Of a stretch of DNA of 42,776 bases, positions 13,535-31,582 are shown piece by piece. Both the position numbers and the translations under genes were made by a program. The notes under the pieces are model-generated. The model was not told the origin of the DNA, ran no database searches, and worked only from the letters and a program-made list of their open reading frames with translations. Positions within the stretch are counted from its first letter, which is position 1, and each line of letters begins with the position of its first letter. This stretch comes from Candidatus Bathyarchaeia archaeon (lineage in GTDB: Archaea > Thermoproteota > Bathyarchaeia > Bathyarchaeales > Bathycorpusculaceae), in the NCBI GenBank assembly GCA_037481775.1, contig JBBFKZ010000006.1, forward strand, positions 1-42,776. The letters are read 5' to 3'.

Positions 13535-13562
13535 TGTTCTGTTAATTCACGTTAACAGACAA
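13535..13562. repeat. dif-like site A
   Basis: TGTTCTGTTAA-TTCACG-TTAACAGACAA. Confidence 0.6.
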
Positions 13563-13683: not shown

Positions 13684-13711
13684 TTTTCAATTAAACATTA
13701 CTAACAGAAGC
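13684..13711. repeat. dif-like site B
   Basis: TTTTCAATTAA-ACATTA-CTAACAGAAGC. Confidence 0.5.
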
Positions 13712-15054: not shown

Positions 15055-15480
15055 TATGCGCATCTGCCCTTACAAAAAGTTCCTTACGGCACCTTAAAAT
15101 AAAAAGCAGAAGGAGCTGAAAACTGCCCTGGCCATGACTCAACCACAACTCCACCATTCACAAAGCTTCTGGAAAAGGAGCCTATGTTCATGAGGGGGCC
15201 TTTCTGAACGGTTCAAACTGGGCTTTTCCCGTAAAAAACACGACGTAAATAACCATGAGGGTTCCTGTTTGCAAGGAGCAAAAAAGGGGCCCCGTAGGGA
15301 CTCGAGGAGAAACTCCCACTAGAGGGAATTGAAGGTTTTTCCAGTTCAACATACCATTCGGTGCAGGCGACGCGTATAAGAAGCATGTTGAGCAAGCGGA
15401 CTCCAGCCAGCTTGTACACTTAATCAAGGTCTGCGGTTTCCTGATGCAGACAAGAGGTTACCTTTCTGGAAAAACACCTA

Positions 15481-15508
15481 ACTTCAGTTGAACATTATTA
15501 AAAGAGCA
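15481..15508. repeat. dif-like site C (degenerate)
   Basis: ACTTCAGTTGA-ACATTA-TTAAAAGAGCA; same 6-bp spacer as site B. Confidence 0.45.
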
Positions 15509-15569
15509 AAAGCATAGATTCGCTATACTTACTGAATATAGCAAAATTAATTATTGGCTGAATGTATCT

Positions 15570-16079
15570 TTGGAATTGATTGATATGAGTCAGGAAAAGC
15601 GGCTGGAAATTCTGTTACGACAATACAGCGAATGCTTTTCGGATCGAAGAACACAGGTTACCATGGTCTGGCAAATTCCTTCCATTACATTGGCTATAGA
15701 TACTTTCTTAGGTGTTCTCTATTTGGGATATGGAAAAGAGATTACGGCGGCAAGGTTACTTGCATTAGCAGCATCTGTCTTTTTCACTTTCGTTGCACTT
15801 GTGGCTCTAATTAAGCATAGATTTTTTGAAATAGCAAGAACCAGAGATATCATTTGGCTACAAAACGAGCTAAAGAAAATTGAGAGCAATATTAGAGAGA
15901 TAAAATTCAGTAGCGAAGATATTATATGTGATAAGGTAGGCTACCCCGATGTTCCTCGGCATTTCATCTCTCGAAGAAGCGCTTATAATTGGTTGAGAAA
16001 CATGATGGTTGCTATGCTGATAATATTGGTTTCACTCCTATTGCGAGAACTTATCCTCGTCATATACACGTTACATTGA
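15570..16079 (+). CDS. Small membrane protein with about 3 TM helices
   Basis: Two adjacent hydrophobic helices plus a C-terminal one; ATG 15585 is an alternative start. Confidence 0.7.
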   Translation: MELIDMSQEKRLEILLRQYSECFSDRRTQVTMVWQIPSITLAIDTFLGVLYLGYGKEITAARLLALAASVFFTFVALVALIKHRFFEIARTRDIIWLQNELKKIESNIREIKFSSEDIICDKVGYPDVPRHFISRRSAYNWLRNMMVAMLIILVSLLLRELILVIYTLH

Positions 16080-16115
16080 CAGAAGTGACAATTTTTACTT
16101 TGAGAGTTCACCAGA

Positions 16116-16143
16116 TGTTCTTTTAGTGTCTCTTAACAGAACA
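16116..16143. repeat. dif-like site D
   Basis: TGTTCTTTTAG-TGTCTC-TTAACAGAACA. Confidence 0.6.
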
Positions 16144-16229
16144 CTGAAGAAGCACCAATATGCAGTTTGTCGATCTCCATATGTCTGTGGATTTCTCGTG
16201 ATGGGATAAAATCCAAAAAGCTTGAGGGT

Positions 16230-16646
16230 TTATTTATGTTTTTTAGCCAGTTGCCAGAAATATCTAAGCTCTATTACGTCTATTTCTTTTGGGCATTCCT
16301 GCCAATCATGCTTCCAGCAAACAATTATTGTGTCTTTGTAATCTACTGGGGTTACATGCCCTTTTTTAATGTGTTCTACAAAGCCCTTGCTAAACACTTC
16401 AAACTCAACAAACTTAGGCTCATCTTTCCATATAACCCCGCAATCCAATCCTTGTCGCAGTCCAAAGTGTATGCCGGTAAAGTTGAAGAACTTATAAAGT
16501 CTTCCAAAGGCAAAGACTATAGCGTTTTCATACATATATTCTTCAGCTTCCGTTTCCCATAGGGGCGCCTCTTCCTCCCAGCTTTTGATGTCTTTTAGCA
16601 TACTGTCTAAATCTTTCACATACTTTCCAATAATTCTCTCTTCCAT
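16230..16646 (-). CDS. Small PD-(D/E)XK-like nuclease domain protein
   Basis: GLDC...VEFEVFSKGFVEH...IIVCWKHDW pattern. Confidence 0.62.
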   Translation of the reverse strand: MEERIIGKYVKDLDSMLKDIKSWEEEAPLWETEAEEYMYENAIVFAFGRLYKFFNFTGIHFGLRQGLDCGVIWKDEPKFVEFEVFSKGFVEHIKKGHVTPVDYKDTIIVCWKHDWQECPKEIDVIELRYFWQLAKKHK

Positions 16647-16827
16647 AACAGCACCAGCTCACCTTATCTTCAGTAACTTGATTTAAAATTTTCCGCATTT
16701 TTTAAAAATGTAAGCATGAGCGTAGATTTTTGCGTAATGGGATAAAAGAATTTTCGCACAGTTTAGGTTTTAACGGCTATTAGAATTACTAATTAGAATT
16801 ATTAAGTTAGTTGGGCTCCTAACTCAT

Positions 16828-17097
16828 ATGAGTCACATAACCGACATATGGGAACCCGTTCTTGGGAAAGATGGGAAAGTGAAGTTTAAACCTAAAGATA
16901 GGATTCGTGGACGTAAAGTAATATGTGCATGGTGCTCACGCAAATACCTATACTTGAAAACCAGTGATGGGGTAAACGTAAAAGTGAGGATTCGTGAATA
17001 TGAAGGGACTTGCCCTAAGTGCGGTAATATTAATGGTTCAGTAGAAAAATACAATGTTGACAAAAGCAGAGAAGATCCCTATCTTTTTTATAGCTGA
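16828..17097 (+). CDS. Small Zn-ribbon protein
   Basis: CAWC ... CPKC pair. Confidence 0.6.
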   Translation: MSHITDIWEPVLGKDGKVKFKPKDRIRGRKVICAWCSRKYLYLKTSDGVNVKVRIREYEGTCPKCGNINGSVEKYNVDKSREDPYLFYS

Positions 17098-17258
17098 CCT
17101 AAAGTGTTCAAAATGTAACACAACCTACAATGTGAAAGTCAACATCCATGCGCGCGCATTATGCTCTCTTTCTGCTTTTTCGCCAATTTTCGTTAAAATT
17201 TAAGCTTTAATAGCTATTGCTACTCCGCCGCATTTTGGGCAATAATAAGCTCCCTCAC

Positions 17259-17426
17259 TCATGTTCGCAGCCACGCTCCTATTGCAAACATCCTTGCCCT
17301 CCGCATCCTTTCACACTCAAGGTGCACATATTTGTTCTCTTGCAGCGGTATTTTTCTATACGGCTGGTTTTCGTATATTGGGCCTTTACATATCTCGCAT
17401 GTTCCAATTATTTTTGGCTCAGACAT
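17259..17426 (-). CDS. Small Zn-finger protein, 55 aa
   Basis: CEIC ... HLEC; SD GGAGG before ATG 17426. Confidence 0.6.
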   Translation of the reverse strand: MSEPKIIGTCEICKGPIYENQPYRKIPLQENKYVHLECERMRRARMFAIGAWLRT

Positions 17427-17542
17427 TTTTCTTACCTCCTTTACTTTTGACATTAGTAAATATAACTTTTTAACTTTTTTAACTTTTTTACTCTATCGTA
17501 AAATTTAGGTATCAATATGCGCGCGCGCAAAGGATAACGACA

Positions 17543-17570
17543 TGTTCCGTTAGTCGCTGTTAACAGAACA
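17543..17570. repeat. dif-like site E
   Basis: TGTTCCGTTAG-TCGCTG-TTAACAGAACA; the palindrome extends to CATG on both sides. Confidence 0.65.
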
Positions 17571-17600
17571 TGTTTGAGTTAATGCGAAGTGTGGATGCGC

Positions 17601-18696
17601 CAATTCCCTTTATTGGGATTTTTGCTCTGCATCTGAGGTGAACTTTACGGCTGGCGACAGGGACATGTACTTTCAATTCCCTTTATTGGGATTTTTGCTC
17701 TGCATCGTTTGCCTCCTGTTTTCTTTGATCGTATATAATAACATCTTTCAATTCCCTTTATTGGGATTTTTGCTCTGCATCCCGTGTTGACAGGCAAAAT
17801 ATGACATGTATCCACTTCGACTTTCAATTCCCTTTATTGGGATTTTTGCTCTGCATCGGCTTAGGCGCAGTGGATCGCGAGACACGCACACAGCTCTTTC
17901 AATTCCCTTTATTGGGATTTTTGCTCTGCATCGGCGAAGTCTATATCGCCTTCCTGCCATCCGCCTTCTATTCTTTCAATTCCCTTTATTGGGATTTTTG
18001 CTCTGCATCGATCGGGAAAATTGGTGGTCGACTCGAATTGTTCGAGTACTTTCAATTCCCTTTATTGGGATTTTTGCTCTGCATCCTGCTGCTATCTGCA
18101 GCGTCAACAGCTTTAATGTACAAGTTTTCAATTCCCTTTATTGGGATTTTTGCTCTGCATCTTCGTCCCCGTTTGTCAATATGTACTCTACGTCCTAGAA
18201 TTTTTCAATTCCCTTTATTGGGATTTTTGCTCTGCATCAACCAGCCAAGCAGGAACATGCCTACAAACACAGGAAAGTTTTCAATTCCCTTTATTGGGAT
18301 TTTTGCTCTGCATCAGAAGCTCTTATGAGCGATTTTAAGGCGTCTCTTATGAATTTTCAATTCCCTTTATTGGGATTTTTGCTCTGCATCCCGACACCGT
18401 TAGCCTAACGGTGCAAGGCGAAAGCATTATTTTCAATTCCCTTTATTGGGATTTTTGCTCTGCATCGGGCTTGCTGAGTTCTAGTTTTTAAGTAAAAGTT
18501 TACTGGATTTTCAATTCCCTTTATTGGGATTTTTGCTCTGCATCCATTTTGAAAGAAACACGGAACCTGAAGTCGTTCATAGAATTTTCAATTCCCTTTA
18601 TTGGGATTTTTGCTCTGCATCCAAATAAGACAAGACGAGAAAACTAAACTAGTAATAATTTTTCAATTCCCTTTATTGGGATTTTTGCTCTGCATC
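17601..18696 (-). CRISPR. CRISPR array, 15 repeats (1 truncated trailer) and 14 spacers of ~36-41 nt
   Basis: 37-nt repeat GATGCAGAGCAAAAATCCCAATAAAGGGAATTGAAA(G/A) on the minus strand. The ATTGAAAN 3' end and the degenerate copy at 17601 place the leader on the right. Confidence 0.98.
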
Positions 18697-18831
18697 CGTG
18701 GGCATTTTTTGGCGGGTTTGCCATTTTAGGCTATATTTGAGTTTAGTTCTGGTATGTATTTTCGATTATTATCTGAGTGGAATTTGATTTATAAAGATAA
18801 TCGAAATTAGCCTTTTTATGGCTGAGTAGAA
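18697..18831 (-). promoter_or_regulatory. CRISPR leader, shared divergent promoter with csa1
   Basis: AT-rich 135 bp with TTTATAAA at 18788-18795, flanked by inverted repeat TTTCGATTAT/ATAATCGAAA. Confidence 0.7.
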
Positions 18832-19719
18832 TTGTACTTTCTATCGGATGTTGAGCATAAGTATCTGCTTTATCAGCTTTTGCCTACTGCTAGAGAAGTG
18901 GGTGTTAGCAAAGAACTGCGAGGTTGGAGTTGGCATCAGCCCCCATTAAAGCCCTATCATGACAATGTGAAGTTGCCCATGTACGCAGTAAGCTCAAGGT
19001 ACTGTCCCACGAACCGCGATGTTTACTTGCGTTATGTGGAGAAAATTTCACCTGTTCCAAGCGGTAAGGTGGCGCTTGGCAAAATTCTACACGGCGTGGT
19101 CAGCGACTGTTTAATGGCTTTTATTCAGCGTGGTAGCATGGATTTTGATGCTTGGTGGCAGACTATCCGCTGGTTTGAAATTCCTGAAAAGCCTGAAAAT
19201 TTGAGAGAGCCTTCTAGAAGGGTTTGGGAGTTTGTGCAGAAAATTTGTGAGGCACGGTTGGCTGATGTTTCCAGCAGACAACCTTACGCTTCAGAGCTTG
19301 ACCTTAGGGTTTCAGCTGTGCCTTTTCTGGTAGAGCATAAGATTTCAGGCGAACTGCTTGGTTTAAGCGGTATTCTCAGCTTGGATTGCTATGATTATTT
19401 AAAGGCGATAATGTTTGACTTGAAGGTCGCAAGCGAACCACAGGAATGGCATAGGCTTTCGCCTGTGGGTTATGCGCTTGTTTTCGAAAGCGTCCACGAA
19501 GTTCCAGTGGACATCTGCTGTAACGTATACCTTAATGTGGAAAATGGGAAGGTTCTGGTGCGTAAGGATTTGTTCTTCGCTAGCGACGAGTTGAGGCAAT
19601 GGTGGATAGAAGAAAGAGATAGAAAACTGGAGATTGTAGCTGAGGGAAAAGATCCGGGCAAGCCAGATCGTTCGCAATGCAAAGAGGACTGCATGTATTT
19701 CAAAGTATGCTATGAATAA
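18832..19719 (+). CDS. csa1: Type I-A Cas4-like protein Csa1
   Basis: ELRGWSW, YCPTNRDVYL, DLK nuclease motif, C-terminal CxxxCxxxxxC. Confidence 0.9.
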   Translation: MYFLSDVEHKYLLYQLLPTAREVGVSKELRGWSWHQPPLKPYHDNVKLPMYAVSSRYCPTNRDVYLRYVEKISPVPSGKVALGKILHGVVSDCLMAFIQRGSMDFDAWWQTIRWFEIPEKPENLREPSRRVWEFVQKICEARLADVSSRQPYASELDLRVSAVPFLVEHKISGELLGLSGILSLDCYDYLKAIMFDLKVASEPQEWHRLSPVGYALVFESVHEVPVDICCNVYLNVENGKVLVRKDLFFASDELRQWWIEERDRKLEIVAEGKDPGKPDRSQCKEDCMYFKVCYE

Positions 19720-19745
19720 CAACCATAAAAGTCAGTGGTGGTTTT

Positions 19746-20780
19746 ATGAAGATTTTCTTGGATGATTTTGGCATTTTCTTGGGCAGAAAAAGAAATCGCT
19801 TTATCGTGAAGAAAGAAGGCGAGGTAAAAGAAATTGTTGCTGATGATGTTGATTCTATAATTTGCTGCTCCTCTGGCGTCGCATTCTCAGCCAGTGCTTT
19901 AAATTTAGCTGTTCAAAATAACATTCAAGTTGTTTTTGCCCGTTACAGTGGTTGGCCCTACGCTTTTTTGATGCCAGCGTCAATGACCGGTTCAGTAAGG
20001 GCTCGAAGGGAACAATTCACCGCCTACAATGATGAAAGAGGCTTTATTTTAGCCAAAAAGTTCATAGCTGGAAAACTTGTAAACCAAGCGAATCTCTTGA
20101 AGCTTATGGCTAAAAACAGACGTCAGACCGACCCAGCACTTTCCGAAAGGCTTTATGAAGCTGGCAAAGCCATAGATGAAATATACACTAAAGTTGATAA
20201 AGAGCAAGGCTTCAAAATTGATGATAAACGCCAAGATTTGATGAATTTAGAGGCTGAAGCTGCACGTTTTTATTGGGATGCTATCCGGCAAGTATTGCCA
20301 ACGGAGCTAGGTTTCACAGGGCGAATAACAAGGGGAGCACGCGACCCTTTTAACGCTATGCTAAACTTTGGCTATCAAACAATTCTCTTTCCAGAGGTTT
20401 GGAAAGCCATTAGCTATGCTGGTTTAGACTTTTATGCGGGTTACTTACACGCTGACAGACCCGGCAAGCCCTCCCTAGTTTTAGATCTAATGGAAGAGTT
20501 TAGACAGCAAGTTGTAGATAGAACCCTTATCGGCTTAGTAACGAAGAACGTGATTAAACCTGATGAGATTATCGTTGCTGAAACTGCTGAAGAGGGCAGA
20601 GTATTAAACAAGGAAGTTGTTAAAACTTTGCTTGCAAGTTTTCAGGAGCGCTTGGATACAGAGGTCATGTTTGATGGACAACATGGACCCGTAAAAAGCT
20701 TTATTCACCATCAAGCTAGGCGTGTAGCACGCTTTCTACTACGTGAAGCAGATTATACCCCGTTTACCTTAGGTTGGTGA
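19746..20780 (+). CDS. cas1: CRISPR-associated endonuclease Cas1
   Basis: EAEAARFYW, DPFNAMLNFGY, GYLH, SLVLDLMEEFRQ. Confidence 0.97.
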   Translation: MKIFLDDFGIFLGRKRNRFIVKKEGEVKEIVADDVDSIICCSSGVAFSASALNLAVQNNIQVVFARYSGWPYAFLMPASMTGSVRARREQFTAYNDERGFILAKKFIAGKLVNQANLLKLMAKNRRQTDPALSERLYEAGKAIDEIYTKVDKEQGFKIDDKRQDLMNLEAEAARFYWDAIRQVLPTELGFTGRITRGARDPFNAMLNFGYQTILFPEVWKAISYAGLDFYAGYLHADRPGKPSLVLDLMEEFRQQVVDRTLIGLVTKNVIKPDEIIVAETAEEGRVLNKEVVKTLLASFQERLDTEVMFDGQHGPVKSFIHHQARRVARFLLREADYTPFTLGW

Positions 20781-20786
20781 TAGCAT

Positions 20787-21077
20787 ATGCGATACGTGGT
20801 TATTTATGATATTACGGACGACAACCTGCGGGCTTTGGTTGCTGAAACACTCAAAGACTATGGATTGCAGAGAATACAATACAGCGCATTCATCGGCGAT
20901 CTACGCCGCGACGAACTAAACAGCCTAATCGTGGACTTGAAAAACTTGATTAGGGATTTAAAAGAAAATGTCCAACTTTATCCGCTGTGTAATACGTGTT
21001 TTAAGGGCAGAAAGGAGGTGGGAAAACCCAAAAAGTATGAATTAAAAGAGGGAAAAGAGAAAATAGCCTACTTTTGA
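20787..21077 (+). CDS. cas2: CRISPR-associated endoribonuclease Cas2
   Basis: YVVIYDITDD, RIQYSAF. Confidence 0.97.
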   Translation: MRYVVIYDITDDNLRALVAETLKDYGLQRIQYSAFIGDLRRDELNSLIVDLKNLIRDLKENVQLYPLCNTCFKGRKEVGKPKKYELKEGKEKIAYF

Positions 21078-21131
21078 CGTGCCGCAATACTTATGTATGC
21101 GTTCGATATCATTTGTATACGGTGAAGTTGG

Positions 21132-21446
21132 TTGACTCTTAAACCTTTGGCTGTTAGGATTCCTGAAGAAATCGAGAAAGAAATTCAAGAGGTGATTGAG
21201 CGGGAAGGTTTGGATAAGGCTACAGCAGTGAGAACTCTCCTCGAATTAGGTATTGGAGAATGGCGCAAGCAAACAGCTTTGGAGTTGCTACGAGATGGAA
21301 AAGTGACGTTTGCTAAGGCTGCTGAAATAGCCAAGCTTTCACTTTGGGAATTCGCTGACATGGTAAAGCAACGCAATATCGAGTGGGTTAGGCATAGGCC
21401 GGAAGAAATCGATAAAGAGTTTAAGGAAGCAACTGGGCGGAGTTAG
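21132..21446 (+). CDS. UPF0175-like antitoxin/DNA-binding protein
   Basis: N-terminal RHH-like AVRIPEE; GKVTFAKAAEIAKLSLWEF; 1 nt before a PIN gene. Confidence 0.8.
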   Translation: MTLKPLAVRIPEEIEKEIQEVIEREGLDKATAVRTLLELGIGEWRKQTALELLRDGKVTFAKAAEIAKLSLWEFADMVKQRNIEWVRHRPEEIDKEFKEATGRS

Positions 21447-21447
21447 A

Positions 21448-21975
21448 GTGAAAAAGCTCGTTTTTAATGCTACTCCGCTAATCTACTTGACCAAGATAGG
21501 GCTAAGCAGGATTTTTGAGGAGTTGAAGGATGAGAAGTTAACCTCTCCAAGCGTTAAAAGAGAGGTGGTGAATGAAGGAAAACGTAAAGGTGTTGCAGAC
21601 GCCATAATTCTAGACAAGCTGTTTCTAAAAGGCGTGTTCAAGATTGTTGAACCTAAAGATAAGAATTTTCTAGAAAGTCTTTTGCAGACGAGGGGCCTTC
21701 ACGTGACTGACGCCGAGGTTCTAACAGTAGCTAAGGAACAGCGTGGAACAGCCATAATAGACGATGAAGTGGCGAGGAGAACAGCTAAAATTTATGGAAT
21801 ATCCTATGCAGGCACACCATACATCTTAGCAAAAGCAGTTTCTGAAGAAATTATTACAAAGGAAAAGGCTAAACAAGCCATAAACGAGATGGTTTATGCC
21901 GGTTGGAGATGCAGCATCGAAACCTACGCTAAAATCATGGAAACTATAGAAAAGCTTGGAAAAAGTAAGCGATGA
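21448..21975 (+). CDS. PIN-domain (DUF3368/VapC-like) ribonuclease toxin
   Basis: VFNATPLIYL, VKREV, LHVTDAEVL, IIDDEVAR, GTPYIL. Confidence 0.82.
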   Translation: MKKLVFNATPLIYLTKIGLSRIFEELKDEKLTSPSVKREVVNEGKRKGVADAIILDKLFLKGVFKIVEPKDKNFLESLLQTRGLHVTDAEVLTVAKEQRGTAIIDDEVARRTAKIYGISYAGTPYILAKAVSEEIITKEKAKQAINEMVYAGWRCSIETYAKIMETIEKLGKSKR

Positions 21976-22640
21976 GCGAGGTTAAACATGTGAGTGCCCA
22001 TCTAGGGGAGAGGCAGACCCTGCCTGTTTCAGATGTTGCTGAACCTTATGTTTCAGTAACCGACGTAAAACATTACATTTATTGTCCTAGGCTTGTGTAT
22101 TTTGATCGCGTTTTGCATGCCCAACCCGTTTTCGGCTCTCAACAGGAGGAAAGCCAAGAGCTACATGAGGAATATGTGCGCAAAGAACTCCGTCGCAAAG
22201 ACGCTGTTTACTATTCGCCGGAATTTGTCGGCGCCGAAAAATTGCTTTTTGTTCAGCTTGTTTCAGAAAAGCTTCAGCTTCAAGGCGTTGTGGACTGCGT
22301 AATCAAGACAGCTAAAGGCGAGTATATTCCAGTTGAGTATAAGAATATGAATTCTGATTGTGGAAAGGCGTATATGGATCATAAGTATCAGCTTGTGGCT
22401 TACGCTTTGCTTGTTGAAGAAAATTTTAGCTCTGTTGTTAAGCGAGGTTTTGTCAATTATATTCCAGAAAAGCTAATTTTGCAGTTTGAAATTACGCCGA
22501 CTATGAAAAGTTATGTGAAAAGGGTGATTGGACACATAAAGAGGATAATCAAAGAGGAAAGGCTGCCGCCCATAAGAGTAGCCCAAAACAAATGCCAAGG
22601 AGGATGCGGACACAAACAAATATGCCAAATTAACCTATAA
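21972..22640 (+). CDS. cas4: CRISPR-associated exonuclease Cas4
   Basis: YCPR, GVVD, PVEYK, QLVAYA, CxxxCxxxxxC. Confidence 0.93.
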   Translation: MSEVKHVSAHLGERQTLPVSDVAEPYVSVTDVKHYIYCPRLVYFDRVLHAQPVFGSQQEESQELHEEYVRKELRRKDAVYYSPEFVGAEKLLFVQLVSEKLQLQGVVDCVIKTAKGEYIPVEYKNMNSDCGKAYMDHKYQLVAYALLVEENFSSVVKRGFVNYIPEKLILQFEITPTMKSYVKRVIGHIKRIIKEERLPPIRVAQNKCQGGCGHKQICQINL

Positions 22641-22679
22641 CGTAAAACTTAAATTGATTAACAAGGTTAACAATCGCAT

Positions 22680-23006
22680 ATGTCAGAAGCAAGTTTTAGG
22701 AAAATTTTCGACTGGGCTTTTGCGGTAGGCAAAGACATCGTTAGCAAGTCTAAATGCGGGCATGAGAGAGGAAAGGATTACTTAAAGCGGCTGATTTTTG
22801 ATATTAGAGCTGAGGAAATGCCTGGTCGATTCTTAGATAAACTCTCCCAAAGACTTGGTGAATATAGAACGAACATCAATATACAAGCCCCTGTAAGTTT
22901 GCTCCCTGAAATTTTTCAGTCAAAGGAACGATGGAGTGGAGATAGTTTTTATTACTTAAAATCGGCGATTCTCTCTGGGTTACTAAATGCTTTAAGTAGT
23001 TACTGA
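22680..23006 (+). CDS. Probable Cascade small subunit (Csa5/Cas11-like)
   Basis: 108-aa helical protein directly upstream of cas7; the call is positional. Confidence 0.55.
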   Translation: MSEASFRKIFDWAFAVGKDIVSKSKCGHERGKDYLKRLIFDIRAEEMPGRFLDKLSQRLGEYRTNINIQAPVSLLPEIFQSKERWSGDSFYYLKSAILSGLLNALSSY

Positions 23007-23016
23007 GGTATGAAAG

Positions 23017-23973
23017 TTGAAAGTTGCCCAAATATCCATAATCGCAAAGGTTTCAGGTAATGTAAATGCAGATGAGGTAATAGGAACTCGGGTAACACTG
23101 AAGAAAATGTATTCTTCAAGTGGTGAGGTTTTACCTTTTGTCTCAGCAAGAGCGATAAAATACGCCATAAGACATGCTTTGAAGGACATGGGATTTGAGG
23201 TTGACCCTTTCATTGAAAATCCTGGGGCGGAGGAAACACTTAGATTAAGTGATACGGGTGATCCTGTAAAATTTATTGATAACGATTTGTTTGGATACAT
23301 GGTGACGCTTGGAAGAGGTAAGACTGCCAGAAGGAGACAAGGTCCAATTGCCCTTTCGTATCTTAAAGCGCTAAGAGATACTCCGGTAAAAGCTGAATTT
23401 GCTGCGCGATTTCCAAGACCATGGAGTAAAAAGGAGGAGGAAAACCCTGTTCCCTTTGAAGTAGAAGTGGCTGAGTTTATAGGAAAAGTCAATTGTGTAA
23501 TATACGAAAACATTGGGATATTTGATGAAAGCGAGCTGAAAGGTGAAGATGAATTAAAAAAGAAGCTCAGCCATAAAGAAGTTAACGGAAAATCAATTTT
23601 TATGCTGGATGAAGATACTAGGAAGAATAGGATTAAAGCCTTTTTACAGGTTTTCTTAACACCGTCCTACGTCTTACCACGAAGAACAAACTCACTAAAT
23701 ATGCCGGAATATCTAACAGCTCTCATAGCATTGTCAGCCAATGGACCATTACCAATTTTCCAGTATTTAACATTCGACTTCGATCAAAATTGTGTTTGCT
23801 TAGATAGTTTAAATAATCTATTATCAAGAGATGAAATTGCGAAAATTGGTGCGAGTTTCTTTTTAATTGACTATACAAACCGGTTGCACTTATCTAATCA
23901 AACGATTCTCAAAAAGCTATCAGTGTCAGAGGCTATTAATAAGATAGCCGACTTCTTTTGCGTGACAAAATAA
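23017..23973 (+). CDS. cas7: Cas7 (DevR/Csa2-like) backbone subunit
   Basis: NVNADE, LPFVSARAIKYAIR, DNDLFGYM, RRQGPI. Confidence 0.88.
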   Translation: MKVAQISIIAKVSGNVNADEVIGTRVTLKKMYSSSGEVLPFVSARAIKYAIRHALKDMGFEVDPFIENPGAEETLRLSDTGDPVKFIDNDLFGYMVTLGRGKTARRRQGPIALSYLKALRDTPVKAEFAARFPRPWSKKEEENPVPFEVEVAEFIGKVNCVIYENIGIFDESELKGEDELKKKLSHKEVNGKSIFMLDEDTRKNRIKAFLQVFLTPSYVLPRRTNSLNMPEYLTALIALSANGPLPIFQYLTFDFDQNCVCLDSLNNLLSRDEIAKIGASFFLIDYTNRLHLSNQTILKKLSVSEAINKIADFFCVTK

Positions 23974-24653
23974 TGAAGGCCGTCATAGTTAAAGTTTCTT
24001 TCTCTGAAGCTTTTTTTAAGGTTCACTACACAAAGGGGTTCAGGCTTACATATCCTATTCCATTACCAACATCCGTTGCTGGAATGTTTGGTGCTTTTTT
24101 AGGTGTGGAAAGGGAAAAAATCAGCGATCTTCAAAAATTTTTGTTTGGGGCAAAACTTGAGAAATATAACGGTTTCATAAATGAAAATGCAACTTTCAGA
24201 CAATACAAAAGCTATGGAGTGGAAATAGGCGTTGCGACATTAAACCTCATTAACAATCCAACATACCTAATTGCACTTGCAGGAGAAAAAGAAGAGGTAA
24301 TTAAAATACAAGATAAGATAAGAAAGGTTGTTGAATTTCTGCCTTACGGTGGGCAAAATGATTTCTTTGCAGAAGATTGGGCTGTTGTTGGAATAGATGA
24401 CGTCACAGAATCAGATGAAATTACAAATTACGCTCCTCGAGACTGGGTTGACCTAAGCATAAAAAGCAATCTAGAAGTTACATTACAAATCCTCCCAGTG
24501 ATGCATACACTATCAGATAATCCTAATTTTTACTTTATGACAAGAGGAAAAATAAAGTTGAACAGGAAAATACCCTGCACAAGTAGCGAAAAAATAGGTC
24601 TTTATAATCTAAATAACTTCAAAATGGAGAAGCATAATGGAAAAGTGGGTTAA
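23973..24653 (+). CDS. cas5: Cas5
   Basis: AFFKVHYTKGFRLTYPIPLPTSVAGMFGAFLG, PYGGQND; ATG overlaps the cas7 stop. Confidence 0.9.
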   Translation: MKAVIVKVSFSEAFFKVHYTKGFRLTYPIPLPTSVAGMFGAFLGVEREKISDLQKFLFGAKLEKYNGFINENATFRQYKSYGVEIGVATLNLINNPTYLIALAGEKEEVIKIQDKIRKVVEFLPYGGQNDFFAEDWAVVGIDDVTESDEITNYAPRDWVDLSIKSNLEVTLQILPVMHTLSDNPNFYFMTRGKIKLNRKIPCTSSEKIGLYNLNNFKMEKHNGKVG

Positions 24654-26748
24654 CCCAGCTTGTAAGCTAAGCCATGAAAATAAAACAATTTCCCAGCATA
24701 TTCAAGAAGTTCTGGCAATACTAGGCGAATACTTACAGTTTTATGGACTCAGAGAAAGATATTTTGAAATAGCAAAATTTCTTGCAGAGCATCATGATGC
24801 CGGAAAAATGCATGTCAATTGGAACTTTAACTCAAAAGAGGGGCATGCTCACCACTCACTAGAGTACATGTTGGAGAAAAAAATCGAATGCCATGAAAAA
24901 AATCTGGATCCCATTCTAAAGTTTTTAATTTTGAAGCATCATTCATCACTTTCTGATGTCATCGGAGAAAAAACAATAGAGTATTGTGGGAAAAAATATT
25001 CGATTAGAAATGTTTTTAATGTGCTTTTCAAGGATGAGATGAACTCTTCATTAAGCAAAATAGTCAATAACCAATTTAATTTGATAATTGATGTGGTCGA
25101 TGTTTTTGGGCTTTTCAAAATAGCCGACGTATGTTCAGCAAAAGGTAAAGCGGTGCGACTGAAACGTCCAGCGATCACAGAAGATTTTGTGAAGCGAATT
25201 GTCGCAAAAAAATTAGACGAAGTTAGGTGGAATGAGCAGAAAACTCTGGCTAGTCTGCCTAACATTTCAATGCTTAGAGCGTATACTGGTTGGGGAAAGA
25301 CCGACGTTTCATTACTATTTTTTAGAGACAAAAAGGTTTCGAAAGTTTTTTATCTTCTTCCTACAATAACCGCAATAAATAATTTTTTTAAAAAACTTCG
25401 CAAAGCATCTGATGAAGAAGTTGCAAAATACTTTTACTTTCTCGACACTGAATTGAAGGAAGATTATGAAAAACTCTCAAACTTATATTTTATAGAGAAC
25501 TTTACGGCACCTTATAACATAACTACCATAGATCAGTTTTTATTGGTTTTTCTTCAGGTCGGAAAATATTATACCAAACGTGTTATGTTCAGAGATTCCG
25601 GTCTAATAATAGACGAGGTTCATTTATTAAATCCTCTGATGCTCGATTTATTGACATTTTTTCTTAAAAAATATGCTATGACCTACAATTTCAAAATTCT
25701 TTTTATGTCAGCAACTTTTCCTAGTGCTTTAATTAAATATTTTTGTGAAAATTTTAAGGTAAATCGTTTTTTAGATTATTCTAAGGGTTATGAGGAAAAG
25801 CGGCGAGTAATGTGGGAATACATAAATGAGCAAATTGAAAATTCTGTAGAGAGCATTATCAGAGAAAGACAAAAGGGTAAAAAAGTTTTGGTTATAACCA
25901 ATACCGTAGAAGACGCAAATAATTTGGGCAAAAAATTTGAAAATGAAATCAAATTATCCTACGGCGAAGATTTCATAGTTTTTCATGCAAGAACCATGTA
26001 TAAAGATAGGAAAGAAAAAGAGAACTGGTTAAATAATAACCGGGAGAAACCGCACGTTGCTATTACAACACAAGTATGTGAAGTTTCATTAGATCTATCT
26101 TATGATGCCATGTTCACAGAGCTTGCTTCACTTCCAGCGCTTGTTCAAAGGTTCGGCAGAGTTAACAGGTATGGAGATAAAACCAAGGAAATAAATGTCT
26201 ATATCTTTAAGCCGCATGTTAAAAATCCACAAACTTATCCTTATTCTGAAAACGAACTAAAAATTTCTGAAGAGATCGTTAGAGAGCTTGAAGGCGAAAA
26301 CCTACGTAATGAAAAACAGTTGATAGAAAAAGCAGATTTATCGCTTGGTTATGAAGAATTATTAAATGAGATAACCCTTGCAAAAAGAAGCATCAACATG
26401 AAATACTGGGAGGAACTATTGAAATTTTTTTACTCTTTTGATGTGAAAGATGAAAAAATATCCCGAGCACTAAATTACAGAGAAGGTTTCACTACGCTGG
26501 TGATTCCACACCCGGACTGTATAGAGGAGCCAATGAGAAGTTATGTAGCTGAATTATTGCGAAAGGATTTTTCATGCAAAAGTTTCAATGAGAAAAGTAA
26601 GTTAATAGCAGAATTAAAAGAATTGGCTGTCCCTATTCCATTTTGGTGGTTAAGAAATGCAAAACTTGAAGAAAGCATTTTTCCTATAGCTTACTTAAAG
26701 GACATAATTTATAACTCTAAATACGGATTTCATAAGCGAGGTATATGA
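24637..26748 (+). CDS. cas3: Cas3, fused HD nuclease + SF2 helicase
   Basis: HHDAGK, HH motifs, AYTGWGKT, DEVH, MSAT, QRFGRVNR. Confidence 0.95.
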   Translation: MEKWVNPACKLSHENKTISQHIQEVLAILGEYLQFYGLRERYFEIAKFLAEHHDAGKMHVNWNFNSKEGHAHHSLEYMLEKKIECHEKNLDPILKFLILKHHSSLSDVIGEKTIEYCGKKYSIRNVFNVLFKDEMNSSLSKIVNNQFNLIIDVVDVFGLFKIADVCSAKGKAVRLKRPAITEDFVKRIVAKKLDEVRWNEQKTLASLPNISMLRAYTGWGKTDVSLLFFRDKKVSKVFYLLPTITAINNFFKKLRKASDEEVAKYFYFLDTELKEDYEKLSNLYFIENFTAPYNITTIDQFLLVFLQVGKYYTKRVMFRDSGLIIDEVHLLNPLMLDLLTFFLKKYAMTYNFKILFMSATFPSALIKYFCENFKVNRFLDYSKGYEEKRRVMWEYINEQIENSVESIIRERQKGKKVLVITNTVEDANNLGKKFENEIKLSYGEDFIVFHARTMYKDRKEKENWLNNNREKPHVAITTQVCEVSLDLSYDAMFTELASLPALVQRFGRVNRYGDKTKEINVYIFKPHVKNPQTYPYSENELKISEEIVRELEGENLRNEKQLIEKADLSLGYEELLNEITLAKRSINMKYWEELLKFFYSFDVKDEKISRALNYREGFTTLVIPHPDCIEEPMRSYVAELLRKDFSCKSFNEKSKLIAELKELAVPIPFWWLRNAKLEESIFPIAYLKDIIYNSKYGFHKRGI

Positions 26749-26751
26749 AAT

Positions 26752-27723
26752 ATGAGTTACAAAGAAATGCTTTTCAAATTTTTGGAAAACGACATAAGCG
26801 CACAATACTGCTTACCTATCGTAAAAAAACTGTTGCAAGCTAACTTTCGTGGCGGTAACTTTGTTATAACGGCCGGTAATGAAAAATTGGTTGTCGCGCC
26901 TAATGAAATAAAGACAAAGATCCAAACAGTTCTTGATTTTATTGTAAAGAAGGCTTTATTAGAAGGTTATAATGTGCTGGTTACTCCTTGCATTATCAGC
27001 AAGGAGCAGGCCCCAAATTTTTATTTGGAAGATGAGGTTCCAAAATCGGAAGAATTATGGAGGTTTCTTTACCTTTTATTAACCGGAGTGCACGGTTTTG
27101 ATCACGTCTTAAATATTGAAAATGCCCCAGCGAAGGTGACTGAGAGTTTCAAAGAATGGTTGATAAATAAAAACTATTTGGTAATAAGCGCTGAACGTTC
27201 TGGGTTAAATGTCAAGAAATTGCTTTCAAGCTTGAATGTACCTAGAGGATTGACATTAGAAGAATTTATAATGAGTTTCATATTTCTTTCATATTTTGCT
27301 AAATTCTGGAAAGACATGCAAGAAAGAATCGAAATCGCTGGGAATGTTGGGAAGCTGCTTTCAGAGATACCTGATGACGCTTCACTAGTTGTTTTTGTAC
27401 TTTCCCGACAAAAGAAAAGAATGTATGTTTTTTCCAGACTAAAAGAGATTATAACGAAATATTACGGCGACTTCTTTATAAGCGATGACCAAATCCCGAG
27501 CATTTGTAGATTCATTTTTTCATTATACATAAGCGATGCGAATTACAGAGAGATATGTGTAGGGATATTGAACAAATTACTGTATTATTTGCTTCAAGGG
27601 CATATAAATGGCGAACTCCTTTCAAGAGCCGTAGAGCTCAAAACAAATTATGAGCTTAGAAAGAAAGAGCGCAAAATTTTCGGTTTACACAATGCACAGC
27701 AATTCCTAACAAAACTTGGATAG
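26752..27723 (+). CDS. Probable Cas8a-like large subunit (short, divergent)
   Basis: Last gene of the effector operon, 3 nt after cas3; no other Cas8 candidate in the locus; no motif recognised. Confidence 0.5.
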   Translation: MSYKEMLFKFLENDISAQYCLPIVKKLLQANFRGGNFVITAGNEKLVVAPNEIKTKIQTVLDFIVKKALLEGYNVLVTPCIISKEQAPNFYLEDEVPKSEELWRFLYLLLTGVHGFDHVLNIENAPAKVTESFKEWLINKNYLVISAERSGLNVKKLLSSLNVPRGLTLEEFIMSFIFLSYFAKFWKDMQERIEIAGNVGKLLSEIPDDASLVVFVLSRQKKRMYVFSRLKEIITKYYGDFFISDDQIPSICRFIFSLYISDANYREICVGILNKLLYYLLQGHINGELLSRAVELKTNYELRKKERKIFGLHNAQQFLTKLG

Positions 27724-28521
27724 ATTACACTTAATTTTTGTAATTCCGAATCCTGCTGTTTTGTTTCCTCCTATGTTTGAGTATTCCGCGTATTTCGCCA
27801 GCATAACTGTCACTTTGCTCCATTCGCTTTCCAAATCTTTCATCTCGTAAGCACACCACCCCACAAACCCCACAGCCTTCTTTTCACGCATAACAGCCAA
27901 CCTGGTTCTAAGCTTGTAACCGCAAACCCCAACATTCTTACCCAACCACTCCTTATAAGCCAAAAACTCCTCTTTACCAAAGCGTCTACCATCGCTGAAC
28001 TTGTTCCAAACACGCATCAACCCAGAAAAAATCCTCACGGAGTCGGGAAACATCCAACGATAACTACTACCCAAACAAGGCAAGTAGGTAGGCGTCTCAA
28101 AAACAAGCTTGAACCGCTCAGCCACTTCCGCTTCACGCTCCAAATCCGCGTAGCTTTTACTTTTAATGCTTAAGGAGGCTACGCGAAAAACCGTGTCAAA
28201 AATCATAACGCTATTCTGCCGCTCAAAAAACCTCAAAACGTAACCAGCCAAATCATCCCGCAAAAACCTAAAACCCACGTAACATGGAGAAGCAGGATCC
28301 AAAACAAAGCCATTCTCAACCCGCGAAACACTCCTAAAACGCAAAGGCGTAACACTGTAAGGCTTAGAAACATTCAACTCATGCAAAACACAAGCTGCAC
28401 TAGGATCCACAAGCCTAACAATATGCAGCAACAACCCCCTAGCCACATGCCCAGTAAAAAACGGCAAAACCACACCTTTCTCCCCAAACAACTCCAAACC
28501 AACCTCAACAGGCAAGTCCAC
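27706..28521 (-). CDS. cas6: CRISPR RNA-processing endoribonuclease Cas6
   Basis: KPYSVTPL, FETPT, C-terminal G-rich loop NIGGNKTAGFG. Confidence 0.92.
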   Translation of the reverse strand: MDLPVEVGLELFGEKGVVLPFFTGHVARGLLLHIVRLVDPSAACVLHELNVSKPYSVTPLRFRSVSRVENGFVLDPASPCYVGFRFLRDDLAGYVLRFFERQNSVMIFDTVFRVASLSIKSKSYADLEREAEVAERFKLVFETPTYLPCLGSSYRWMFPDSVRIFSGLMRVWNKFSDGRRFGKEEFLAYKEWLGKNVGVCGYKLRTRLAVMREKKAVGFVGWCAYEMKDLESEWSKVTVMLAKYAEYSNIGGNKTAGFGITKIKCNLSKFC

Positions 28522-28600
28522 TCAACTCCCCAACTGAGATTCACATTATTTATCAAGTAATTAAGGATAAAACATGAATTAAACCTTAAAGATTTTTATG

Positions 28601-28628
28601 TATTCTGTTAGTTGCTGTTAACTAAAAT
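28601..28628. repeat. dif-like site F
   Basis: TATTCTGTTAG-TTGCTG-TTAACTAAAAT; direct repeat of site E (18/20 over TTCYGTTAGTYGCTGTTAAC). Confidence 0.65.
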
Positions 28629-28707
28629 GGCAAAAACAAGCCTTAAATTGTCTAGAAACAGAAAAAGAGGGGATTTTGCGGGAGAAGTCTCCAGTTTGTG
28701 GCGAATT

Positions 28708-28723
28708 CGAAATAATTCCCTAA
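28708..28723 (+). repeat. Putative attR, displaced original 3' end of the radical SAM gene
   Basis: CGAAATAATTCCCTAA encodes EIIP*; 22 nt from the convergent kinase stop codon. Confidence 0.65.
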
Positions 28724-28745
28724 GCTACCAAGCCTTTCCCGTCGT

Positions 28746-30838
28746 TTATTTTCCCTTTAGTTCATTTGAAGCGTTTTGCGCCACAGCTATTGGCAATGGC
28801 GCGTATCCGTTAAAAAGCCATTTGCTTGCCCCTTCATCTTTTTGTTTCGGCTTGGCTGGAATTGTAACGGTGACTATGGTTCCCCTTCTCACGGTGCTCT
28901 TCACGTGAATTTTTCCGCCATGGGCTTCTATTATGCGTCTGCAAATGGGCAAGCCGAAACCCATGCCCTTTGCTTTGGTCGTGAACAGGGGCGTTCCGCC
29001 TTTGATTTCGCTTAGGGTTTCTTTTGACATGCCGGTGCCGGTGTCTCTGAAAGCGATTTCTATTTTGCCTCTCACTTTTCTGCTTGTTACCTTTAAGGTT
29101 CCTCCCCTAGGCATGGCGTCTATGGCGTTTTGGATTATTCTGGCGAAAGCCTCGCGCATTTTTTCCTCGTCAGCCTTAAACTTAAGCCGTGAATTCGTCG
29201 CGTCTATAACACGGATTTTCTTAGGCACCTCTATTGTGGACAGCGCTTTCTGCAAAAGTGCCTTTGGATTGACCCTTATGTATTCAAGTTTTAAATCTTG
29301 CGAGTACTCCAGCAAATCATTTATGATTTTATTTGAATAGCTAATGGCTTTTTCAATGGTTTCAAGCATTTCTTTGCCTTTAGCGCCTAATTCTGGGGTA
29401 CACTTAGTTTTCAAGTAATATGCAGCGCCCATTATTCCTGTTAAAGGATTACGCAAATCATGTCCGAGTATTGCTGCTAATTCGCCAATGGCAGCTAGCC
29501 GCTCAGCTTTAACAAGCTTGGCCTGCGTTTGCTGCAGCTGCCGTGTTCTTTCTTCCACCAGCTGTTCCAGCTTTTCAGAATACTCTTTCAACTTATTCTG
29601 TAACAGCTTCTTTTCAGTAATATCAACTGACAACTCCAAAGCAGCTATAACATTTCCTTCCGCATCCTTAATGGGCGTCGCAATAAGCTCAACCCACATT
29701 GGCCTGCCATCTATACCCGTGAAGGCGTACTCGTGCCTATCAAGGCTTACCCCTTCCTCGAATATTTTCCTCACTCCACAGCCAGGACAGACATGTGTCA
29801 GGTGGTTAAAGGTTGAATAGCAGATTTTGCCTTCACAACCAGGATTACATTGCCGCAGATACCTGTTAACCCATAGAATTCGGTAGTCTCTACTGATGAT
29901 TCCAAGCCCAGCGCCAACGTTCTCCGTAACCGCCTCAAGCGTGTCGCGCTCACGCTTAAGGGCATCCTCAGTTTTTTAAGTTCCTCATATAACCTGCGGT
30001 ATTCTCTTTCTGAAGCCAATAATTTTGCTTCTGCCTTTTTTCGTTCAGTGATGTCTCTTGCAATGCTTAAGATGGCTTGTTTTCCCTGATAGGTCATGAG
30101 GCTGGAGCTGATTTCCATAGGAATTTCTTTTCCATCTTTGGTGATGTGGGTTGTTTCAAAAACCTGTATACGATCAGCAGGCATATTTTTGATTAGATTA
30201 CGAATTTGCTCCCTAGTTAAGCTGCCATCGATGTCCATTGGTTCCATGCGAAGCAGTTCCTCTCTTGAATAGCCGAGAGTCTTAACAGCCGCGTCATTCA
30301 CGTCAACAAATTTGCCATCAAGGCTTATGACCCAAACAGTGTCATTCATTTTATTGATTAGTTCACGGTATTTCTCTTCGCTTTCGTGAATTTGTTTAAC
30401 CTTCTCATTTACGAGTTCTTCCATTTTCTCAGCATATTCCTTTAGTCGCCTTAGATTTTCCTTTCTCCGAGTTATGTCCCTTAAAATGACAACATTAGCC
30501 TCTTGCCCAAAATAATCAATCCTTTTTGCCTTAAGTTCAAAATATCGAGTCTGCCCGTCCTTATCCGTTAAGCTAATTTCGTACGGTTCAATATGCATGC
30601 CTTGCATTCTCTTTCTCAGATTTTCTGCCATACGCGCTTTTATTTCAGGCGTTAAAAAGTTCATTTCCGAATATTTCTTGCCGAGCAGTGCTTTCTTGCT
30701 TAGCCCTGTCAAGTTCTCTACTGCATCATTTACCGCCAAGAAAAACCCTTCTTTGTCAACGACGACCGTTGGATCAGCAAGGAAGTTTAGAAGTGTCATG
30801 AAGTTGCTGCCACTGCTTTCTTGGCAATTACGCGGCAT
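28746..30838 (-). pseudogene. Cytoplasmic multi-PAS histidine kinase split by a 1-nt frameshift
   Basis: Two PAS domains in 29798..30931 and HisKA/HATPase (GHDLRNPL, NAIDAM, DTGTGM, GMGFGL) in 28746..29774. Adding one A to the A6 run at 29972-29977 joins them through a third PAS (EELKK-TEDALKRERDTLEAVTENVGAG...). Confidence 0.85.
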
Positions 30839-31033
30839 ACTTTCCCCAACGTTATTGCAATCTCGATTCTCCGGTATCCAGCGAGATTTAAACAAAAGTA
30901 TCATTACAACAAATAAAGCCTTATGAATCATCCATACAGATCCAGGTTCTCTTAAAGGGGATAACTATGCAAATGCATATTCAAGATTTGGCGCAAACTA
31001 TATCGCTTGACAAAAAGAAGAAAAAAGAAAAAT

Positions 31034-31294: not shown

Positions 31295-31582
31295 CTATGT
31301 TCGCCTCTCACTACTATATAACGTGCCAAGCGCATAAAAAACTTGTTTACACCCACATGAATCCGAAGACTCAAATATTAAGCAAACAAAAAAGTGATCT
31401 TCGCAAGCGCCCCACTCCTCCACCTACTTCGTCATATTTGGCGCCTATTAGCAATTCAATGCAGAAACCTATAGAGGGGCTATCACGGTACAGAACGCGT
31501 GCCTGTTTCTAATGGGTAATCCTAAACAAAGCTCATGTAAAATGAACAAAAGCCACATATTATTGTTCACGCATCGGCGCTG

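Follow-up and report, generated by a model that had tools for sequence, protein, structure and literature searches.

We analysed a 42,776-nucleotide stretch of DNA, called the window below, from a Candidatus Bathyarchaeia archaeon (GenBank assembly GCA_037481775.1, contig JBBFKZ010000006.1). The window begins at the first base of contig C6 in the source genome, G000 (1.82 Mb in 54 contigs), and it contains a type I CRISPR-Cas locus that lies between two short, directly repeated sites. We found that this locus, with its array, adaptation genes and toxin–antitoxin (TA) pair, swappable effector module and cas6, moves as a site-bounded unit. The sites belong to a family with discrete, ordered spacer classes, the DNA between them is hypervariable, and they lie on an island whose insertion site is empty in relatives. 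The locus and its two bordering sites are made up as follows (amino-acid lengths are given as residues; ORF, open reading frame).

17545 to 17568, plus strand: junction site C, TTCCGTTAG TCGCTG TTAACAGAA, the left repeat of an earlier sequence-only reading
17597 to 18696, minus strand: CRISPR array, 15 repeats of 37 nt, the repeat ending in ATTGAAAG/A on the minus strand
17597 to 17633: degenerate terminal repeat of the array, whose leader occupies 18697 to 18831
18832 to 22640, plus strand: adaptation module with csa1, cas1, cas2, a UPF0175 antitoxin-like gene, a DUF3368 PIN-like gene and cas4 (Pfam)
22680 to 27723, plus strand: effector module, type I-B-like, with a 108-residue ORF, cas7 (Cst2/DevR), a cas5b-like gene, cas3 with an HD domain and a 323-residue ORF
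27706 to 28521, minus strand: cas6 (Pfam CRISPR_Cas6; TIGR01877)
28603 to 28626, plus strand: junction site D, TTCTGTTAG TTGCTG TTAACTAAA, the right repeat of the same reading

The gene set of a type I CRISPR-Cas system was complete (cas1, cas2, cas3, cas5, cas6 and cas7 together with the repeat array), while the subtype signals were mixed, Csa1 being a marker of type I-A and Cas7 and Cas5 matching I-B models, Cas5 below the cut-off. The array appears to be read on the minus strand, judging from the 3′ end of the repeat and the position of the degenerate repeat, by a rule that we take to hold for type I and III repeats. The guanine–cytosine (GC) fraction was lowest in the effector genes (0.32–0.35, versus 0.42 in the adaptation genes), and GC was low from about 12000 to 28000. 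The UPF0175/DUF3368 (PIN-like) pair, which resembles a TA pair, lies between cas2 and cas4 at 21132–21975 and was kept, with 71–97% identity, in all eight related cas loci; one locus, L065, carries a second, diverged UPF0175/DUF3368 pair just past its site D.

We examined the two repeats that enclose this locus. The left 20-mer, TTCCGTTAGTCGCTGTTAAC, occupies 17545–17564 and the right one, TTCTGTTAGTTGCTGTTAAC, occupies 28603–28622, both on the plus strand and identical at 18 of 20 bases. With up to three mismatches allowed, they were the sole two matches across the window, a result that was reached in none of 100 dinucleotide-preserving shuffles of the window. Each 20-mer sits inside a 24-bp inverted repeat of 9-6-9 layout (17545–17568 and 28603–28626), in which 9-nt inverted arms, TTCTGTTAG and TTAACAGAA, enclose a 6-bp spacer. 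At the left site the palindrome extends further, to 34 nt (17537–17570), and is near-perfect. The left site is separated by 28 nt from the degenerate terminal CRISPR repeat, which starts at 17597, and the right site begins 82 nt past the start codon of cas6 (28521). Apart from the array, the cas genes, the TA-like pair and the 108- and 323-residue ORFs, the interval between the sites held no non-nested ORF of at least 60 residues. The sequence-only reading had described directly repeated, near-identical and recombination-like sites around 11 kb that hold only the array, cas genes and a TA pair. Both the repeats and this content, the two further ORFs included, were borne out, and inverted arms around a 6-bp spacer are the architecture of a tyrosine-recombinase core site.

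The findings above were extended by searching for further copies of the 24-bp site. We surveyed 201 Bathyarchaeia genomes sampled across the order with a pattern that allowed two mismatches, with the reversed pattern as control, and scanned metagenomes with an exact IUPAC pattern for C- and D-type sites (T[CT]GC[AT]G spacers). In what follows G013:C1 stands for contig C1 of genome G013, L numbers denote loci and X numbers denote sequencing runs. Genome G000 itself contained eight good copies, five of them in the island described below (starting at 13537, 13686, 16118, 17545 and 28603) and three elsewhere (C1:3260, C3:35971 and C11:6337). The three further copies in the island are listed here.

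13537 to 13560, plus strand: junction site x, TTCTGTTAA TTCACG TTAACAGAC
13686 to 13709, minus strand: junction site E′, spacer TAATGT, in the orientation opposite to the other sites
16118 to 16141, plus strand: junction site A, TTCTTTTAG TGTCTC TTAACAGAA, between convergent genes

Sites were present in 28 of the 201 genomes and were not found in the other 173, which include three of the same genus as G000; the reversed pattern gave 0–2 hits per genome. At least 120 metagenome stretches carried a C- or D-type site. Exact IUPAC scans of IMG/VR gave no hit, either with the C-/D-type or with the A-type pattern, and the elements showed no sign of being recognised viruses. In a set of 73 non-redundant sites, information content was restricted to the 24 bp, flanking positions carrying at most 0.39 bits, and 69 of the 73 sites were intergenic. 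The number of copies per genome was at most about ten, and these were confined to islands. The first two sites of the window, x and E′, lie 149 bp apart, and similar pairs were found in G058 (2810/2959), L094 (49/198) and L142 (98/242); an 83% match of the window to G013:C2 stops at 13709, the end of E′. Two candidate identities of the sites were rejected, since ARAGORN reported no transfer RNA (tRNA) in five site regions and a search of four site regions against Rfam returned just a 15-nt T-arm-like match and a weak CRISPR-DR hit. Among the 146 metagenome sites described below, 32 were at most 150 bp from the end of their locus, a rough count, since some of the loci were cut from longer contigs. 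The proximity to locus ends suggests that a site joining several contexts in the community causes assemblies to break there.

The spacers were found to fall into discrete classes, which we named A (TGTCTC), B (TCATCG), C (TCGCTG) and D (TTGCTG, TTGCAG or TTGCTA). The 73 sites included 19 with TGTCTC (and one in reverse), 17 with TCGCTG, seven with TCATCG (and two in reverse), four with TTGCTG and two with TTGCAG, a count that is biased because the first pattern constrained the spacer. A cleaner test was provided by 80 metagenome loci among the matches listed (L071–L150, 146 sites), which were fetched solely with the C-/D-type pattern and nevertheless also held TCATCG 22 times and TGTCTC 15 times. 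Among these were 39 loci with several sites, in which the forward order was A to B in 11 cases, B to C in 18, C to D in three, B to D in two and A to C in one; the exceptions were one C to A and one C to C. All classed sites pointed in a single orientation in 34 of the 39. The window follows the same order, with x, the inverted E′, A, C and D. The difference between the C and D spacers was identical in G058, and the D spacer starts with TTGC in L064, L065, G013:C2 and in elements that carry no CRISPR-Cas locus. The difference is therefore one between classes and not a private mutation of this locus.

We then compared the CRISPR-Cas module with its relatives, which comprised eight other loci. 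The adaptation proteins were 71–97% identical across these eight, and Cas6 was 85–89% identical in G058, L064 and L065. A C site was present in five of the six module loci whose trailer side lay on the contig, L065 being the one without, and a D site was present in all five whose cas6 side lay on the contig; G000, G058:C8, L064 and G013:C2 had both. The homology to the window starts at 17545 in G058:C8 and L062 and at 17542 in G013:C2, and it stops at 28620/28621 in G058:C8, L064 and L065. Furthermore, in contigs from two other studies (two contigs from X2 and one from X4) the match starts exactly at 17545, with unrelated sequence before it. Outside the sites the similarity disappeared. Over the 2.5 kb upstream of C, no DNA was shared among five CRISPR-bearing loci, and when 12 loci were compared upstream of C the sole matches were 774 bp between two G013 elements and a 28-bp A site. 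Downstream of D, no pair among the five CRISPR-bearing loci shared DNA except G000 and G013:C2, which have in common just a conserved terminus of 60–70 nt that is also common to non-CRISPR elements. The arms followed a similar division: the cargo-side right arm of C was TTAACAGAA in four of the five CRISPR-bearing loci versus none of seven others, whereas the flank-side right arms of D were all different across the five. Shared flanks beyond the sites, which would have spoken against a cassette in the sense of the sequence-only reading, were looked for, and the outside DNA was unrelated; the same cas cassette was found between C and TTGC-type sites in three other genomes. These results indicated that the sites are the true borders of a portable module.

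Inside the module the effector part was swapped as well. G058 has a type I-D module in its place and L064 another module, and joints that span it were seen in X4 and X8, from 22628/9 to 27732/45. In the X2 hot-spring metagenome a 5,189-bp contig matched 22591–27779 with no differences, while the adaptation genes differed by 2–7%. For these comparisons we used the assembled contigs of four runs, including X2, X4 and X8. No C-to-D deletion joint and no circle junction was found in them, which says nothing either way, as contigs cannot show rare forms. Two apparent joints at site borders in X8 (15324 to 16118 and 16141 to 17545) were not counted, having 24 letters on one side. A test for enrichment of the ends of high-scoring segment pairs (HSPs) near sites found 12 of 154 unique ends at most 15 bp from a site, with 2.1 expected and a maximum of eight in 1000 randomisations; it was given little weight because overlapping duplicate loci and CRISPR-repeat HSPs were included.

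To see what else the sites enclose, we grouped the intervals between neighbouring sites by homology. The 28 B-to-C intervals fell into 27 homology groups, the 17 A-to-B intervals into 16 and the six A-to-C intervals into six, while the 12 C-to-D intervals gave eight groups, of which the sole group of four was the CRISPR-Cas module. Altogether 117 cargo proteins matched 112 Pfam families, including beta-helix surface proteins, methyltransferases, acetyltransferases and transporters. C and D sites around non-CRISPR cargo were found in G013:C1, G171:C16, L071, L119 and L126. The slot contained a type IIG restriction-modification enzyme in L071 (PADLOC, 6.4e-261), a C39 peptidase-like protein in G013:C1, and unknown proteins together with a winged helix-turn-helix (wHTH) protein in G171:C16. 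The CRISPR repeat of the window followed five of the 56 C-type sites in the metagenome loci among the matches listed. The window has two further intervals of this kind.

13975 to 16079, plus strand: E′-to-A cargo, proteins of 359 and 169 residues with no family
16230 to 17453, mixed strands: A-to-C cargo, proteins of 138 residues (minus), 89 residues (plus, zinc-binding) and 64 residues (minus)

No homolog of the proteins of either interval was found in sister loci, and near-identical contigs covering the A-to-C cargo were present in runs X2, X4 and X8. The region of the 64-residue gene left of site C also contains two runs of alternating G and C, at 17149–17162 (within it TGCGCGCGCA) and 17516–17534 (within it TGCGCGCGCGCA).

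The sites of the window lie in a larger insertion, whose ends and backbone are given below.

5995 to 7116, plus strand: radical SAM/SPASM gene (Pfam Radical_SAM, Fer4_12, SPASM), the chromosomal left flank and integration target
7101 to 7124: left island junction (left attachment, attL, region), where homology to the empty sites of relatives stops at 7122–7124
7144 to 8457, minus strand: Xer-like tyrosine integrase of 437 residues with an N-terminal zinc-binding domain (Pfam Phage_integrase, 2.2e-24)
8686 to 10464, minus strand: 592-residue protein with no family, part of a replication-type backbone
10455 to 11468, minus strand: archaeo-eukaryotic primase (Pfam AEP-TOTE, 6.6e-23)
11474 to 13242, mixed strands: backbone genes for proteins of 114 residues (minus), 236 residues (12074–12784, plus, weakly MarR-like wHTH) and 100 residues (12940–13242, plus)
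28656 to 28700, plus strand: ‘U unit’, the conserved element terminus, containing GAGGGGATTTTGCGGGAGAAGTCTCC; in sister elements a tRNA 3′ fragment follows
28708 to 28724: probable right attachment site (attR), in which the last bases of the radical SAM gene recur in degenerate form
28746 to 29774, minus strand: histidine kinase gene (Pfam HisKA and HATPase), the chromosomal right flank

In three relatives (G004:C101, G001:C56 and G014:C82) the radical SAM and kinase genes are adjacent, 60–80 bp apart; G004 and G001 belong to the same genus as G000, and G014 to another genus. Given these empty sites, G000 carries a 21.6-kb insertion from about 7125 to 28725. At the left junction, blastn aligned positions 1–558 of L009 with 6568–7124, L010 with 7122–5691 and L013 with 7122–5837, and on the right the homology to empty-site relatives resumes at 28808–28845. 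G005, G003 and G002 were rejected as sources of an empty site, synteny being broken at the kinase by another rearrangement that brings an Sm-like gene alongside. The integrase gene is intact, its 3′ end abutting attL at 28 bp from the radical SAM stop codon, and the best NCBIfam match of the protein was recomb_XerA_Arch (102.9 bits, profile positions 6–260 of 263), below the 220-bit cut-off. The candidate attR matched the gene end of G004 at 15 of 17 bases, a score reached by none of 1000 shuffles, while 19 of 1000 shuffles reached the score against the gene end of G001 and 39 of 1000 that against G014. Against the left copy of the window itself it matched at 12 of 15 positions, which 552 of 2000 shuffles reached; this match is not significant alone, and we therefore call the attR probable.

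Other elements of G000 resemble this island. Integrase paralogs adjoin tRNA-Arg on contig C3, tRNA-Phe on C5 and tRNA-Leu on C10, and at the far ends of the C3 and C10 elements, at distances of 41 kb and 5 kb respectively, tRNA 3′ fragments are repeated. The C3 element is probably a 41-kb integrated element (35736–76828) that reaches from tRNA-Arg(CCT), with its integrase at 75616–76764, to an 18-nt copy of the 3′ end of that tRNA. A TCGCTG site (35971–35994) stands at its far end and is followed by a tandem pair of U units, one of which carries the 3′ portion of another tRNA. U units (with GAGGGGATTTTGCGGG followed by CTCC) precede the attachment remnant at the ends of several elements, at 28656–28700 in the window and at C3:35730–35960, C1:3170–3250 and C14:6040–6110, and several copies run into a tail resembling a tRNA acceptor and T-arm that ends in CCA. 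These tRNA-like tails are attachment remnants and not genes, and the U unit is possibly an arm-binding region of the integrase. Contig C5 carries a cas6 paralog (57982–58731, 64% identical) just past tRNA-Phe and an integrase of the same family (59543–60652), and C5 yielded no further cas gene of this type. The 114-residue backbone protein has paralogs in the C3 and C10 elements, and the primase was 61–65% identical in site-bearing loci of G211 and G008. The 100-residue protein looks, by eye, like a ribbon-helix-helix protein. Next to the first sites of G058, G008 and G013 its N-terminus is conserved, and the protein was dropped as an obligatory partner of the sites, being found in seven of 201 genomes (five of them among the 28 site-bearers).

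On the chromosomal right flank, the histidine kinase has orthologs 74–77% identical in G001 to G005. The PAS/histidine kinase region (28746–30931, minus strand) is read in two frames (342 and 377 residues, out of register), compared with a single frame of 689–696 residues in G005 and G003, which is a frameshift, an assembly error or a real split. G000 and G005 differ by an inversion of about 25 kb that has a repeat of 48–52 bp at its borders (31432–31483 and C6:56563–56614), and this repeat belongs to a dispersed family of 55–60-bp repeats with dozens of copies across the contigs of G000.

We wanted to gain insight into how the sites might act. On balance we favour the reading that they are dif-like sites which split such islands into ordered slots, that the CRISPR-Cas module is the cargo of the C-to-D slot, and that cargo is exchanged by site-specific recombination. 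On this reading the insertion of the island, at the 3′ end of the radical SAM gene, was the work of its own Xer-like tyrosine integrase, and the sites would be crossover points used between sites with like spacers, the enzyme being the integrase of the island, a paralog of it or the XerA of the host. Candidate Xer-type recombinases of the host are encoded at C27:8122–8643 and C12:2930–3280. Cargo might be swapped slot by slot, by cointegration at one pair of sites followed by resolution at the neighbouring pair, a route that has been proposed for Acinetobacter dif modules, and unlike spacers on neighbouring sites may prevent deletion of the resident cargo. For those modules recombination is described as needing identical or nearly identical spacers, and recombination across a one-base spacer mismatch has been reported (PMC13141974); the difference between C and D may therefore slow deletion of the module without forbidding it. 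We infer recombination at the sites, and we take them for crossover points and not promoter elements, because the spacer classes stay discrete and ordered even where no similarity is left in the flanks and because the sites are indifferent to the direction of genes. A more far-reaching proposal is that of a natural recombinase-mediated cassette exchange, in which the spacer-distinct sites A to D and a Xer-like recombinase would allow each slot to be reloaded independently from a pool of cargo in the community, with unlike neighbouring spacers protecting resident cargo from deletion; we put it forward tentatively, leaning somewhat to the doubtful side.

Several observations weigh against recombination at the sites or loosen the case for it. 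The C10 and C5 elements carry an integrase of the same family and no site, and the attachment site of the integrase itself is unlike the sites. In the 73-site set nine nucleotides were conserved per arm, and not 11 as in dif. Class frequencies are biased by the search patterns behind the loci, in which the arms and some spacer positions were fixed, and many loci are related elements and not independent. With a relaxed rule using the arms alone, G000 gave 12 hits against eight chance hits in the reversed genome, and single unclassed ‘x’ sites may therefore be noise. The borders of the effector module (22629 and 27732–27745) lie inside cas4 and cas6 and have no palindrome, which means that sharp borders can also arise through ordinary recombination in conserved genes. 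Finally, sites often stood 60–120 bp upstream of a gene start, as would suit a regulatory site.

This last observation belongs to a rival reading that we consider unlikely, namely that the sites are operators of a regulator of the element (for example the 100-residue or a wHTH protein) which silences or co-ordinates the cargo, the borders having arisen through homologous or microhomology crossover at the only conserved 24 bp. Palindromes are typical of the operators of dimeric regulators, the commonest distance to a gene start was 80–100 bp (12 of 61 distances), and in G013:C1 three sites precede start codons by 85–91 bp. Site D precedes cas6 by 82 bp and adjoins an A/T-rich box, the gene of the 100-residue protein adjoins the first sites in G000, G058, G008 and G013, and the effector module shows that borders do form without sites. 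Against these points stands the arrangement of the neighbouring genes. Among 75 classed sites flanked on both sides by ORFs of at least 100 residues, the neighbouring genes converged at 23, a setting that has no promoter, were co-directional at 21 and 19 (one count for each direction) and diverged at 12, so that the four arrangements were about equally frequent. Moreover, a regulator that reads the arms leaves discrete, ordered spacer classes amid unrelated flanks without an explanation, the 100-residue protein is as rare as stated above, in site-bearers too, and 24 bp is a very short substrate for homologous recombination. We regard it as hardly credible that the sites serve as structural hairpins (such as transcription terminators, signals for RNA processing or REP-like extragenic repeats), have no part in recombination and lie at borders incidentally. 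A gene end at most 60 bp from the site was seen in 26 of 69 gene-end distances, and in the window the left site extends to a near-perfect palindrome of 34 nt; but the arms are conserved in sequence, beyond mere complementarity, no T-run follows sites C and D, the 12 sites between divergent genes have no gene end nearby, no Rfam family was found for the four site regions searched, and the sites number at most about ten per genome, confined to islands and in fixed order.

The sequence-only reading had a different history for the pair, in which a circular CRISPR-Cas cassette with one site integrated at a single island site, leaving two hybrid sites that a later private mutation in one spacer locked. 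Some features of G000 fit such an event. On contigs C3 and C1 a single TCGCTG site immediately precedes the conserved terminus without intervening cargo, and 40 of 47 positions agree between the C3 terminus and the stretch that follows site D. The window also has, ahead of its site C, a 15-mer that is found ahead of the C3 site, although the likeness of the left flanks ends with these 15 nt. Locus L074 likewise has two TCGCTG sites 5.1 kb apart, as integration at a single site would give. Nevertheless, we judge this history quite improbable. As four genomes have the module with both sites in contexts that are unrelated, this island is not where it arose. Ancestral elements with C and D sites around other cargo exist, and the finding that D-type spacers are older than the CRISPR cargo weakens this history; the pair are the C and D members of an ordered series found in many elements. 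The supposed lock, TCGCTG versus TTGCTG, is the conserved class difference that recurs across genera, and the insertion that can be demonstrated is not the interval between the repeats but the larger 21.6-kb island, with an integrase and an attachment site of its own and empty sites in relatives.

This arrangement was compared with known systems. The nearest described system is that of the pdif (XerC/XerD) modules on Rep_3 plasmids of Acinetobacter (PMC13141974; PMC6449649). There, too, short two-arm sites with a 6-bp spacer flank discrete accessory modules, the same site-bounded module occurs in different contexts, and spacers vary between sites, exchange being proposed to need matching spacers and to proceed by a cointegrate and its resolution. 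The sites described here differ in their archaeal host (Bathyarchaeia) and in lying on chromosomally integrated islands and not on plasmids; their arms are near-symmetric with 9 nt conserved, their orientation is direct where the Acinetobacter sites alternate, the order of their spacer classes is fixed, their cargo includes a complete CRISPR-Cas system, and they are known from sequence alone. Integrons, including archaeal ones (10.1101/2022.02.06.479319), similarly combine a tyrosine recombinase gene at one end with variable cassettes and imperfect palindromes. Unlike in integrons, the sites here measure 24 bp, lack the attC R/L-box layout and show no conservation outside. An attC site is about 55–140 bp long with an R/L-box structure, and there is one per cassette. 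The sites here are specific to a position and not to a cassette, the cargo lies in any orientation and often consists of several genes with their own upstream regions, and the integrase scores far below the integron-integrase cut-offs (TIGR02249, 64.6 bits with a cut-off of 265; NF011946, 31.7 with a cut-off of 435).

A further comparison is with chromosomal dif, which has two inverted repeats around a 6-nt spacer and is cleaved by Xer at the spacer edges (PMC8371274). The archaeal dif/XerA system shares this layout with our sites, and the best match of the integrase is archaeal XerA; archaeal dif is, however, a single chromosomal site with 11-nt arms (PMC8371274), whereas the sites here are multicopy and confined to islands. 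As in archaeal elements with non-split (class II, pNOB8/XerA-like) integrases at tRNA genes (PMC8371274), the intact integrase gene adjoins the target. The island also shares with such elements a primase-type replication module, and paralogs of its integrase lie at tRNA-Arg, tRNA-Phe and tRNA-Leu, but it targets the 3′ end of a protein-coding gene. In the parts covered of the literature on CRISPR-Cas in archaeal integrated elements, mobile elements of Bathyarchaeia, integrons of archaea and archaeal islands with Xer or inverted repeats, neither these sites nor site-bounded CRISPR-Cas modules were described, nor was a series of internal junction sites described there for archaeal integrated elements. 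In the same literature we could find no described natural counterpart of ordered sites with differing spacers. The combination of an archaeal host, a chromosomal island, direct orientation, ordered spacer-distinct sites and a whole CRISPR-Cas system as cargo is unusual.

The movement of complete CRISPR-Cas systems between genomes has largely been inferred from phylogenies. In the present case the transferred unit and its limits are visible at single-base resolution, and these limits also enclose other defence and accessory genes in several families of an uncultured archaeal class. Should the sites prove to be true recombination sites, they would provide short, defined 24-bp substrates together with candidate enzymes, and they would explain why assemblies break at them. 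Collectively, they would then make up a modular platform for gene exchange in archaea, comparable to the dif modules or integrons of bacteria.

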